From contig CM119269.1 in assembly GCA_051294375.1 (NCBI GenBank), positions 11,816,809-11,880,808 on the forward strand: a DNA stretch of 64,000 nucleotides, written 5' to 3'. Shown piece after piece: positions 58,501-63,247 of this stretch; position 1 is the first letter of the stretch; each line of letters opens with the position of its first letter. This DNA is from Paraspadella gotoi (lineage: Eukaryota > Animalia > Chaetognatha). Below the pieces are notes generated by a model, which did not search any database, was not told the DNA's origin, and worked only from the letters and a program-made list of their open reading frames with translations. Position numbers and translations under genes: made by a program.

Positions 58501-61500
58501 AAAAAAAAATAGAAAATTAATTGATGCTTAATCACACTCTAAATAAAACAATTTTAATTTTTATCACGCCACTTTTTTCTTAATACAAAATCCCAAATTT
58601 ATTTCCGAGATTTTCGTGGATTTTTATTTTTTTCCTTTTATAACACTTTTATATATTATTTTATTATTCTCTTGAAGAGACAGTAATTATTGTTATGTAT
58701 TAGTGACAGAACCGTTCAATATAAGCAGTCCTGAGCTTCGGATCAGGCTGTAACACCGAGTTACAGGCGGGTTAAGCGCGCCCGTCCCTCTAAACTGCTA
58801 GGCGACCACCGGGCCACCGCTAGAACCCCGGACCTTTGGGTTGGGAGGCAAATGACTTGCCTCCGGTACCAATGGCCACTGATGAACGGTTGGTAGATTT
58901 TAGTCCACCATATATCCCCCCCTCCCGTAGGGAGAAGTCTGTTGCGTCTCTTCAGTGAATTGTTGTTGTTGGTGGAAAGTTGTCGTCACCAAGTTGAGGC
59001 ATGTCGCCTGATGTGTTGTGGGCGGAAAGTGCATCGCCAGGTTGAGGCATGTCACCTGAAAGTGTTGTTGTTGCTGTTGTGTTTGGAAGTCGGGCTCACC
59101 AATGAAGAGACAGTAATTATTATTATGTGTTAGTGACAGAACCGTTCAATATAAGCAGTCCCTGAGCTTCAGATCAGGCTGTAACACCGAGTTACAGGCG
59201 GGTTAAGCGCCCCGTCCCTCTTAACTGCGAGGCGACCACGGGCTAGAACCCCGGACCTTTGGGTGTGGGAGGCGAATGACTTGCCTCCGGCACCAATGGC
59301 CGCTGATGAACGGTTGGTGGATTTTAGTCCACCATACTCTCTATATTTCTCTCTCAATCAACTCTCTGTCGCTCTCTCTCTCTCTCTCTCTCTAATTAAC
59401 TCATCGCGTCAATGAATGACTAGCATCGCATCAATGAATGACTATCATCGCATCAATGAATGATTATCATCCGATCAATAAAGTACTATCAATGAATGAT
59501 TATCATCGCATCCATCATTTGGTTATCATCGCATCAATCCTTTGGTTATCATCGCATCAATATTTGGTTATCATCGCATCAATATTTGGTTATCATCGCA
59601 TCAATATTTGGTTATCATCAAAAGTAGGCTCGATCCCTATTGCTTTTAAGATTTTTTTTTTAAATTCGGAATTTAACTATTTTTTAGGTTTAATGCTTAC
59701 CCTTAGTTTAGGGTTAAGGATAATAGTTATGGATTTGGTCATGACTTTGGTAATATATTATACTAAAATATTACGATTACAGTTAAGTTCAGGAATTACG
59801 GAACAGAAATGGGGAGCTTTTGGAAAAGAGAGCTTGTGGCGGTATATTCACACCGCCTCACATCTACCATCGTTCAGATAATGTCACAATCCCATTTGCT
59901 CTCAGGGGGAACTCACCATCCCAAGCGTTTATTTCCATCCACAGTCCTAACGACTTCCCTCTGCGATGGGAAAGCGAGACCGTCCTAGGGTAACCGCGCC
60001 AGTAACTGAATGCGCCACGGATAGTCGGAAATCCCCAAAGCCAACAGTGATATGCCCCATCCCAATGGGCATCACAGGCAACCTGGCTGTTGCCATAAGA
60101 CCCTATTTTGTCTTAATCATCTTCTTTCTACTCAGCATTTAATTTTTTACGTTTAAATATTAGCAAAACATAAAATTAAATAGACAATATTCATAATTTC
60201 CATTCAATTCCTTAACGAAATTTTTAATTACTAGTAATCAATACATAGAAAAACATCGATTTGGGAAACAGTGCTAATTTTATTTAGACCATGCATTCAA
60301 ACCAAAAAGGGATTAATCCCTTTTTGGTTGAAAGTCTCTCTCTCTCTCTCTCTCTCTCTCTCTCTCTCTCTCTCTCTCTCTCTCTCTCTCTCTCTCTCTC
60401 TCTCTCTCTCTCTCTCTCTCTCTCTTTCTCTATCTCTGAGTCTCCTCCTCTTCCTCTCACCTTCTCTTATTTGTAAATAATTTTTTTTTTTTTACCTCAC
60501 CACAATTTCTCTGGCCTTGAATAATGAACCAGCTAAATGGTTTGAATGCATGGTCTAAATAAAATTAGCACTGTTTCCCCAATCGATGTTTTTCTATATC
60601 AAACTACTCGGTGCATTAGATGACACTTAACAACCTAGTAATCAATATCTAGTAAATCTCAGTCATTTCCCATGCTATCCAATCCAATGCCAACAATTCC
60701 CAAGATGGCCGCGATTTGTAGTGATCGAGGATCAGGACACACAACGATCTTTGATGACGAAAATGAGCGAATTTCCAGTTTCGATCAAAAGCGACGGAAG
60801 CAACACGATGAAAGCCGAAGTCACGACCATCACTTCTTGCAATATGGACACAACCTATTTTCCGCAAGACATTCAAACTTGCAGAATTCAAATCGCTCTG
60901 CATCCGTTGAATTATAGGTTGGTTGTGATTGAAGTTGTAAGCATTGAAGACTCACATTTCATTATGTGAGAGAAAGAGAGAGAGAGAGAGAGAGAGAGAT
61001 AAAAAAAGAAAGAAAGATAGAAAGAAAGAAAGAAAGAAAGAAAGAAAGAAAGAAAGGAAGGAAGGAAGGAAGGAAGGAAGGAAGGAAGGAAGGAAGGAAG
61101 GAAGGAAGGAAGGAAGGAAAAAAAAAGCTACCTAGTTCACTCTTTCACTTTGACTCGATTCACAGAAACATCGCCAACTTGACGGCGATTTACTCCCACG
61201 ACGACGATCTCTTCGACGATTCCATCGATTGGCCTCTGGAACCGACCTACAGTAGCTCGTCGACGGAGGCCTTAAGGGCAGGCGTGGAAATGGACGACAC
61301 CGGAGGGGTGAGATGAGTTTTTTGAATTATCACAGTTTATATCGAGTTTTCACTGAGTTTAATACTTAATTTAGTATTTACTAATGTTTGACTGAGTTCT
61401 GACTGAGTTCAGTTCAGTTCACTAAAGCTATGTTTAGTTTTGTTCAGTCCGGTTTTCCCAGAGTTTTCATTGGGTTCTGAGTTCTCACGGAGTTCCGAAT

Positions 61501-63247
61501 GAGTTTTGACGGGCTTGTCCTTGATCTCTCCATGAATTTTCACTGTTTTATCACTTAATTCTTAATGCGCTCTCTCTGAATTCTCACTGAGCAGTCGGAA
61601 ACGGTCCAAGAGAATAATATTTGTAATATGTTTAATTAACCCAGACCCTGTACGCTTACCTGGAAATCGCCGTCAAACGAAATTCTCACGACATCGATGT
61701 GGCGCTCGTTCATCCGATGTACACTTTTTCTTTCATCACAACCATCATCTACATTCTGCCTCCTGGTATATTAGTATATTAGTATATTTGTAGTCGGGCA
61801 TAGCAAAGTTCAACCCGCTTCTAAGCATGACACCTTCATTCGTGACACGGTGGCTCATTGAGTAAAGCCATCAGCTCATGACCACCAGGTACCGGGTTCA
61901 ATCCCAACCCGGTACCTACCCTGCGGGAAGTGTGAGGATGGCCGTAGGCCGCCTTGGGGGCGTGGAAAACCCTCAAGCCTGGTTCCCAGCCCATGACCCG
62001 TTCCATAGCTGCTAGAGGGGGTTAAAGAAGTTACGGATAGTCATCTTCAGCCCACTTTGCGCCTTATCCACATATTAGTATTATGGTGGACTAAAATCCA
62101 CCAACCGTTCATCAGCGGCCATTGGTGCCGGAGGCAAGTCATTCGCCTCCCAACCCAAAGGTCCGGTGTTCTAGCCCGGTGGTCGCCTAGCAGTTAAGAG
62201 AGACGGGATGCTTAACCCGCCTGTAACACGGTGTTACAGCCTGATTTGAAGCTCAGGGACTGCTTACATTGAACAGTTCTGTCACTAACACACAACAATC
62301 ATTACTGTCTCTTCATTGGTGAGCCCGACTTTCGAAAACCAACAGCAACAACACTTTCAGGCGACATGCCTCAACCTGGCGATGCACTTTCCGCCAACAA
62401 CACATCAGGCAACATGCATCAACTTGGTGACGAACTTTCCACCAACAACAAATCATTGAAGAGACGCAACAGACTTCTCCCTACAGGAGGGGGGGATGTA
62501 TGGTGGACTAAAATCCACCAACCGTTCATCAGCGGCCATTGGTGCCGGAGGCAAGTCATTCGCCTCCCAACCCAAAGGCCCGGGGTTCTAGCCCGGTGGT
62601 CGCCTAGCAGTAAAGAGGGACGGGGCGCTTAACCCGCCTGTAACACAGTGTTACAGCCTGATCCGAAGCTCAGGGACTGCTTACATTGAACGGTTCTGTC
62701 ACTAACACACAACAATCATTACTGTCTCTTCAGTATATTATATTAGTATATTAGTCTTTATTTAACTTAATTTATAACAAATTTAAGGTTTAGTTGGGTG
62801 GGATAAAAATTATTAATGCAGAAGGTACCTAAACAAATTTGTTTGCAACAGATAGCGGTGAAAGAATAGGATCCGCCATAACGATGTTGCTTACCATGGC
62901 TGTCACAATGCTGGCTGTTAAGGTAATTTCCAAAGTGGTCACAGGATTGCGACCTTGCGTAATAATTGCACCCACCGAATTACGTATTGGATACAATACT
63001 ACATAGGCGCAATCCTAATGGAACCGATTTCCACATTAGTCGACTGAGCCTTCGATTGATGTCGACCGGAAGCCAATGACCCTTGCAATGACCCTTTGAT
63101 CTTTCAGGACATTCTCCCCAACGCCAACGTCATTAACGACGGTTATCCATTCTTTTCCGTTTTCTGCCGAATTTGCTTCGCGCAAACAATCGCCCTGTTC
63201 ATTCAGAGCATCTTCGTGATTGCAATTCACAGCTGCGAAAGACCCAA
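55579..63247 (+). CDS. Cys-loop ligand-gated ion channel subunit (nAChR/5-HT3-like, cation-type, non-alpha); M4 lies beyond the window
   Basis: Phase-compatible exons: 55579-55648 (signal peptide MYKYLFFMSLVGIFESAVA), 55903-56060, 56249-56364 (WHDPNLAW), 60663-60917 (Cys-loop CNMDTTYFPQDIQTC), 61166-61307, 61645-61765 (M1), 62852-62922 (DSGERI, M2), 63108-63247 (M3). Confidence 0.92.
58673..59336 (-). mobile_element. Family-B twister-bearing TRIM / LTR retrozyme (LTRs 59336-59103 and 58912-58673)
   Basis: TA...CA LTRs, CTCT TSD on the + strand, PBS TGGTGAGCCCGAC and PPT GGGAGGGGGGGA. Both LTRs contain twister cores. Confidence 0.92.
60246..60598. mobile_element. MITE with ~58-bp TIRs enclosing (CT)n
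   Basis: atagaaaaacatcgat...gcattcaaacca / tggtttgaatgc...atcgatgtttttctat. Confidence 0.75.
61789..62072 (+). mobile_element. Family-A solo LTR, diverged (twister core mutated)
   Basis: TGTAGTCGGG...CCACA with TATT TSD. A-box TGGCTCATTGAG at 61851 and B-box GGTTCAATCCC at 61895. Confidence 0.88.
62532..62603 (+). ncRNA. tRNA-derived (Gly-like) segment inside the family-B LTR
   Basis: 72 nt with a 7-bp acceptor-like stem GCGGCCA/TGGTCGC and a T-arm CCGGG-GTTCTAG-CCCGG. TTCGCCTCCCA resembles the tRNA-Gly anticodon region. The D and anticodon stems are degenerate. Confidence 0.65.
62606..62681 (+). ncRNA. Twister ribozyme, P5-type permutation (best family-B copy)
   Basis: AGCAGT-AAA-GAGG-GA-CGG-GGCGCT-TAA-CCC-GC-[CTGTAAC..GTTACAG]-CCTGA-TCCGAAGC-TCAGG-G-ACTGCT. 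T1 is CCG:CGG and T2 is GC:GC. Predicted cut between 62630 and 62631. Confidence 0.85.

Follow-up and report, generated by a model that had tools for sequence, protein, structure and literature searches.

Twister-type ribozyme candidates in the long terminal repeats of small non-coding retroelements of the chaetognath Paraspadella gotoi

Described relatives of the family B elements

Long terminal repeat (LTR) retrozymes are known from plants (PMC4918200; this and the other papers on related systems are cited for the parts of their texts that were available). They are non-coding elements with a self-cleaving type III hammerhead ribozyme at the same place in each LTR, a Met-type primer-binding site (PBS), a polypurine tract (PPT) and a 4-bp target site duplication (TSD); a 2026 preprint treats LTR retrozymes as primarily plant hammerhead elements, as far as its available text goes. 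Here we describe a 64,000-nt stretch of contig CM119269.1 of the chaetognath Paraspadella gotoi (“the window”), which holds two elements, together called family B, with a similar body: non-coding, with a PBS, a PPT, a 4-bp TSD, and a motif in the same place in each LTR that is predicted to be self-cleaving. As in the plant elements, cleavage in both LTRs would leave no R region. Family B differs from them in its animal host, in having a twister-type fold rather than a hammerhead and a tRNA-Trp-like rather than a Met PBS, in its 234-bp LTRs, 417–431-nt predicted unit and tRNA-like head, and in predicted circles that are less self-paired.

A second set of relatives is found among the terminal-repeat retrotransposons in miniature, or TRIMs, in the Helenus/TRIMp3 group, for which dependence on Gypsy elements and criteria for membership have been set out (PMC10886601). 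These share with family B a length below 1 kb, a tRNA-like sequence in the LTR, a TGG-type PBS and, in animal Helenus, a 4-bp TSD; some wasp families also have a Trp PBS and TA..CA ends. Unlike in Helenus, box A and box B are degenerate in family B. Neither twisters nor self-cleavage are mentioned in the available text of Kojima 2024 (PMC10886601), and ten ribozyme-core strings found no twister-like context in its consensus file, where line breaks may hide matches. That twisters might also be present in Helenus of wasps and zebrafish was considered, but the animal consensus LTRs examined from that source lend this no support, there being usually no space for one behind the tRNA-like part.

The metazoan non-LTR retrozymes (PMC7229834; 10.64898/2026.07.22.740005) are short repeats with one ribozyme per unit. 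They carry dimeric type I hammerheads and have no LTR, PBS or PPT, unlike family B. Two further repeat families occur in the window: family A, a second LTR family, and family C, which is like these retrozymes in its low GC content and its 323-nt unit. The available text of the preprint (10.64898/2026.07.22.740005) does not mention twisters. Twisters have been reported at the 5′ ends of RTE elements (PMC8501958; PMC7761336, from unpublished RTE work), in viroid-like circles (10.1101/2022.07.19.500677) and in RNA viruses (PMC13725137). The T-variants of Schistosoma Perere-3/RTE (PMC8501958) resemble the motif described here in their reduced or variable P1 and in belonging to an animal retrotransposon, but they are single and of type-P1 layout, and the autonomous non-LTR element that carries them has them at its 5′ end, which they process.

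The Helenus body, the retrozyme logic and the twister catalyst are known parts; their combination, and the ribozyme variant, appear to be new. The literature searched held no twister in an LTR element, no animal LTR retrozyme and no palindromic dimeric twister, although subscription papers, Roth 2014, the CHiTA supplement and Repbase may hold prior notice; a preliminary description of this locus, made from the sequence alone, had likewise known of no twister-based LTR retrozyme in an animal.

Anatomy of the LTR elements

Element E1 (62082..62732, + strand) lies between copies of the TSD GTAT (62078-62081 and 62733-62736). It consists of a 234-bp 5′ LTR (62082..62315), a PBS (62317..62329), a PPT (62485..62496) and a 234-bp 3′ LTR (62499..62732). 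Element E2 (58673..59336, − strand; TSD AGAG) has a 234-bp 5′ LTR (59336-59103), a PBS (59101-59089), a PPT (58926-58915) and a 240-bp 3′ LTR (58912-58673). The LTR termini are TA..CA, and the LTR pairs are identical at 224 of 234 positions in E1 and 223 of 232 aligned positions in E2. The internal parts (183 and 190 bp) open with TGGTGAGCCCGAC, the PBS, 1 nt downstream of the 5′ LTR, and close with a G-rich PPT that stops 2 nt short of the 3′ LTR. The PBS matches the complement of the tRNA-Trp-CCA 3′ end at 12 of 13 nt (PMC10886601 Fig. S2), the comparison being with A. mellifera tRNA-Trp, from a species other than the host. No open reading frame (ORF) is common to E1 and E2, the longest Met-started frames being 88 and 44 codons respectively. 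By length (<1 kb), paired LTRs, PBS, PPT, TSD and lack of coding capacity, family B elements are TRIMs, and mapping of these parts bears out the preliminary description, which had reported two elements with ~234-bp LTRs, a PBS, a PPT, a 4-bp TSD and no ORF.

At 62732, 118 contig ends with unrelated flanks were found in public run X1 (agreement 0.40), 54 in run X3 and 37 in run X9; at 62081/62082 there are 56 + 42 in X1. The sharpness of these ends and their many unrelated flanks show family B to be mobile and present in high copy. Depth in X1 is ~10^6 across the element and 289.5 in the flank, a ratio that is not a copy number. In two X1 contigs the element's 3′ end is followed directly by its 5′ end (62732 to 62081); in DNA, such joints could come from whole elements arrayed head to tail or from a two-LTR junction.

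Just upstream of each family B motif lies a tRNA-Gly(CCC)-like cloverleaf. In the E1 5′ LTR the box A of this head (62115..62187, +) is degenerate (62123-62134), and its box B has been altered by mutation; in the 3′ LTR the head (62532..62604, +) has a box B-like GGTTCTAGCC at 62584-62593. ARAGORN calls the latter as a tRNA-Gly(ccc) pseudogene at ps88; of 1000 shuffles, 1 is called at ps90 and 4 at ps86. A loose box pattern occurs in two of the four family B LTRs (55/20000 shuffles), and strict boxes A and B in all three family A LTRs (79/20000 shuffles), while the Rfam tRNA model has no match in either family. There is no TTTT on the sense strand after the motif. The head, which the preliminary description missed, is likely to be an internal promoter for RNA polymerase III (Pol III), judging by its boxes and the absence of sense-strand TTTT; together with the 4-bp TSD, it places these elements among the Helenus/TRIMp3-like TRIMs.

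Family A, which is likewise Helenus-like, is represented by three LTRs with TG..CA ends, which self-BLAST does not align to those of family B at E 1e-10. A1 (29334..29619, −) is followed by a PBS start, TGGTGAGCCC, in common with family B, and a truncated internal part. A2 (34028..34313, −; TSD TCTC) is a solo LTR with canonical boxes A and B; A3 (61789..62073, +; TSD TATT) is another, 8 nt upstream of E1. An intact family A pattern also occurs on one contig of a second organism (public run X10).

Some further structures were noted in these elements. The LTR 3′ end is complementary to an internal stretch (-18 to -27 kcal/mol) in both family B elements (62296-62325 with 62440-62470; 59093-59122 with 58940-58970) and in A1 (29325-29375 with 29240-29300); as modelled, these stems recall U5-leader stems and may control access to the PBS. 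The family B LTR begins with a 7-bp hairpin (62082-62103), and a long-range stem, formed by 62103-62112 and, in the corresponding 3′ LTR, 62686-62696, closes the tRNA-like head and the twister-type motif into one domain. A3, E1, E2 and A2 are all within or next to microsatellites (GA repeats or repeats of the TAGTATAT type; 61780-62745, 59337-59390, 34020-34330), and a preference of A and B elements for inserting into microsatellites is possible.

A twister-type motif in three repeat families

The motif in the family B LTRs reads P5-P2′-GA-T1′-linker-UAA-P2-GC-P3-P4-U-T1-AA-GC-P4′-P5′. The Rfam consensus for Twister type P5 (RF02684) has the same order and the same core letters (GA, T1′, UAA, GC, P4 and the U-NNN-AA-GC loop), with both pseudoknots. 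It also expects a P1 hairpin of ~8 bp, a 4-nt P2 and no P3, whereas the family B motif has a 6–7-nt linker in place of the P1 stem, a 3-nt P2 with a bulge opposite, and an inserted P3; the latter is 17–23 nt long in the A and B LTRs, with GA, UAA, GC, P4 and the U-NNN-AA-GC loop all in place. The preliminary description had read the P5-permuted twister consensus, P1 included, in each LTR. The order and core are indeed present, but there is no P1 stem, and one of the four copies is decayed.

Three of the copies are intact: in the E1 3′ LTR (62606..62681, +; palindromic linker at 62624-62629, predicted cut 62630|62631), the E2 5′ LTR (59154..59229, −; predicted cut 59205|59204) and the E2 3′ LTR (58724..58799, −; 7-nt self-complementary linker, predicted cut 58774|58773). 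The E1 5′ copy (62189..62264, +; predicted cut 62213|62214) differs from its 3′ counterpart at five core positions (62201, 62208, 62209, 62245, 62246); a P2 pair, the linker palindrome and T1 are weakened in it. The predicted U|AA sites are 417 nt apart in E1 (62213/62630) and 431 nt apart in E2 (59205/58774), the spacings given in the preliminary description. Since the 5′ ribozyme of E1 is decayed, 62082-62732, which had been proposed for in vitro transcription, is by its sequence the less suitable cleavage substrate, and E2 is the better one to test.

A strict descriptor, requiring the core features and T1 and P2 pairing, matches three of the four family B LTRs (all but the decayed copy) and none of 20000 shuffled B LTRs (14/20000 when relaxed); for A and B together it matches 4 of 7 LTRs, with 0 and 2 matches in 20000 shuffles. 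A generalised version matches 7 of the 11 copies in families A, B and C (1, 1 and 4 of 10000 shuffles), with a background of 0.13 sites per shuffled window. Because the descriptor was written after family B was known, independent tests weigh more, and these come from the other two families.

Family A has a motif of the same layout, with T1 as UCC/GGA rather than CCG/CGG, a different paired P3, and P4 as CCUGG/CCAGG. It is intact in A2 (34098-34182), changed at the catalytic G position in A1 (29404-29488), and decayed in A3 (61919-62003). Family C is an AT-rich, partly tandem, non-LTR repeat of ~323 bp (4977-5308, 7072-7584 and 29869-30132) without LTR signals, PBS, PPT or boxes. Its motif, at 30017..30077 (+), has no P3, T1 as CCA/UGG, T2 as AC/GU and the linker AGGCCU; there are two tandem copies, 323 nt apart, in 7072..7584 (−; motifs at 7139-7199 and 7462-7522), and a further one at 5035..5095 (−). 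A covariance model (R1) built from A and B only, with no pseudoknot pairs, retrieved family C unprompted (E 9e-8 to 8e-5). From its repeat structure and motif, family C is a candidate twister-based non-LTR retrozyme.

Pairing was counted in an alignment (labelled A3, like the LTR) of nine of the 11 copies, C3 and C4 having been excluded by a 1e-6 cut meant against an antisense echo match. P5, which is out of register between families, was left out of the counts, as was a MAFFT alignment with a misregistered family C loop. Pairing holds in 186 of 191 cells of the nine copies, and in 12 of the 23 pairs both partners are changed; slid controls pair at 25–55%. All T1 and T2 cells are paired, with changes on both sides in two of three T1 pairs and one of two T2 pairs, although neither pseudoknot was in the model. 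P4 is paired in 97.7% of cells, and P2 (three pairs and a bulge, not four) in 96.3%, with one covarying pair. Across the three families GA, U|AA and the 8-nt L4 loop are kept, while T1, T2, P2, P3 and P4 pairs are changed on both sides. Sequence variants point the same way: the bases that spoil the core in the decayed motifs of E1 5′ and A3 are minority alleles (62201, 62208, 62209, 62246, 61939, 61947, 61987, 61994), the P2′ bulge base (61931) is polymorphic, and none of the 40 variant rows listed, of 128, moves GA, UAA or AAGC off the intact state. Covariation across the three families thus supports a P5-permuted twister-type fold in each LTR of elements with TRIM anatomy, and as far as sequence comparison can tell it is very probably a real and selected fold.

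The linker is GGCGCU or GCGCGCU in family B, CGGCCG in A2 and AGGCCU in family C. It is fully self-complementary in 8 of the 11 copies, keeps a GGCC core in two, and is broken in one. A dimer helix through it is worth -8.3 to -13.3 kcal/mol, compared with +4 to +6 for a 1-bp hairpin; 56 of the 4096 hexamers do as well, or 35 of 448 among the GC-rich ones. The two central, adjacent bases switch from GC to CG between families, and because adjacent bases cannot pair within one strand yet switch together, an intermolecular helix is indicated. A different palindrome in each family suggests strand-swapped dimeric twisters, in which P1 would be shared by two ribozymes. In such a model, a 1-bp P1 may still allow a monomer slow cleavage. 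There is some precedent: twister P1 is reported to be dispensable (PMC5408937), natural twisters tolerate imperfections in P1 and P2 but not changes in T1, T2 or the catalytic bases (PMC11662667), and in the axolotl hammerhead HHR_Amex1, which has a palindromic tetraloop besides a single base pair, the dimer cleaves better than the monomer (PMC7229834).

A possible cut-and-circularise cycle, and other features

On balance it seems probable that the family B elements are TRIMs with a Pol III head and dimer-acting twisters, whose released unit is circularised and reverse-transcribed by borrowed Gypsy-type machinery. Starting at the 5′ head, Pol III would read across both LTRs; the two twisters would pair through their P1 linkers and cut at U|AA; a host ligase would close the 417–431-nt unit into a circle; and tRNA-Trp-primed, Gypsy-type reverse transcription round the circle would rebuild both LTRs, as modelled for plant retrozymes (PMC4918200). 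Beyond the anatomy, we infer every step of this cycle. Since the circle junction would recreate ordinary LTR sequence, the back-junction reads proposed as a check in the preliminary description would not be recognisable in RNA-seq. A wider generalisation can be offered tentatively, at somewhat less than even chances: that natural twisters include an obligate-dimer subclass, with palindromic P1 and bulged 3-bp P2, which Rfam does not see, and that it underlies retrotransposition through circular RNA in three or more repeat families of this animal. Among these would be the first LTR retrozymes from an animal, combining a Pol III promoter, paired twisters and Gypsy priming signals.

If a twister LTR element does exist in an animal, the cut-and-circularise strategy would be independent of both ribozyme class and kingdom, and genomic twisters would gain a concrete role beyond RTE 5′ ends. 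A partner-needing twister would also be a new natural ribozyme switch, cutting only once both LTRs had been transcribed and leaving the monomer circle stable; it would be of interest for the production of circular RNA, where twisters are already in use.

A number of observations weigh against the circularising cycle, or against the fold on which it depends. The Rfam twister models, which the preliminary description had proposed to run on the LTRs, find no match in family B, either above the gathering score or with E<=10, and family A has only a partial Twister-P5 match (14.9 bits, against a gathering score of 37.6); a phage locus used as a control (L121) scores 57–61 bits. Family B is missed because the model expects a P1 hairpin, a 4-nt P2 and no P3, so the Rfam check misleads for this variant, and similar families have probably been missed in other genomes. 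The LTRs have no Rfam hammerhead match in family B. The 3-nt P2 itself departs from the 4-nt consensus, and no experimentally tested example of one came to light. The descriptor was tuned after B (for the 3-nt P2) and again after C (for a free T2) were known. The covariation rests on three independent families only, the pair-count measure is equalled by 28 of 500 shuffles, and the 40 of 128 variant rows cover family-wide core conservation only in part. Minimum free energy (MFE) folds favour rival hairpins that sequester P2 and T2 by 3–13 kcal/mol, with pseudoknot energy uncounted. The LTR pairs are ~4% diverged, so E1 and E2 are not fresh copies. The predicted circles are 55–56% paired (z -3.35 and -1.97), compared with >70% reported for retrozymes (PMC4918200); none of the ten window ORFs scanned belongs to an autonomous Gypsy partner; and the lack of TTTT across 650 nt is weak evidence.

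Some of these points would be accommodated by an active twister without a circle, which is unlikely but deserves to be taken seriously. The ribozyme would replace a terminator, and transcripts cut only at the 3′ site would have the ~100-nt tRNA-like head at each end, to serve as R region, and would retrotranspose like any linear TRIM RNA. In the animal Helenus LTRs examined, the tRNA-like part is usually closely followed by a T-rich tract and the end of the LTR (PMC10886601); here the twister is in that place, with no TTTT after it. Cassandra offers a parallel, with a short terminal repeat made from a Pol III transcript (PMC10886601), and the weak self-pairing of the predicted circles is as this explanation would have it. 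It is harder to reconcile with the identical local context of the ribozymes in both LTRs, since a strand-swapped dimer would cut both, or with family C, a tandem repeat that has the motif but lacks PBS, PPT and boxes, and in which excision of monomers is the simpler role.

It is less probable again that the motif is a twister-derived fossil or structural signal which no longer cuts, having lost P1 and shortened P2. Scores below the Rfam thresholds, the rival hairpins of the MFE folds, and the failure of 4 of the 11 copies to pass the descriptor would all be expected of a relic. A relic would not be expected to change T1 and T2 on both sides between families while keeping GA and U|AA, to preserve a palindromic linker through three different sequences, or to have its decayed bases as minority alleles.

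That the motif is a second degenerate tRNA, with P5 for its acceptor stem, P3 for the anticodon arm and P4/L4 for the T arm, and resembles a twister by coincidence, is very improbable. ARAGORN at lowered thresholds does draw pseudo-tRNA cloverleaves over the motif, and the family A P4/L4 fits the box B pattern, but each of the three families has a loop of 8 nt (a tRNA T loop is 7 nt), the middle and the end of this loop covary with T1′ and T2, P3 is lacking in family C, and in the intact E1 3′ LTR ARAGORN at ps80-88 calls the upstream head only.

Relatives were sought elsewhere by pattern scans, which gave 0 and 11 matches in two scans of metagenome sequences and, in viral sequences, at least 120 in a scan that was too loose and 3 and 1 in two others. 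The strict descriptor was passed by one of 123 other loci (L075), which has no Rfam twister match, and the generalised descriptor by none of L121-L135. L121 was considered as an instance of the 3-nt-P2 variant and rejected, being a canonical Twister-P5; matches of model R1 there are not independent, as the locus was picked by its P4/L4 pattern. This phage contig has three canonical Twister-P5 motifs (92-145, 502-557, 1007-1042) at ~410–490 nt spacing.

Elsewhere in the window, a broken non-LTR retrotransposon with endonuclease and reverse transcriptase pieces lies at 11453-14154, and a frame at 34879-35301, without a Pfam match, looks by eye like a Penelope-type GIY-YIG endonuclease, a possible helper for family C. 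A Noggin gene with a divergent cystine-knot domain, a sign of an animal host, lies at 46207-47727 (Pfam E 7.5e-39); a word search gave no Noggin homologue. The first 3307 nt form a large inverted repeat that is close to perfect (98%; 1-1150 against 3307-2149) and contains internal repeats; CCCTAA-rich units adjoin it at 3248-3708.

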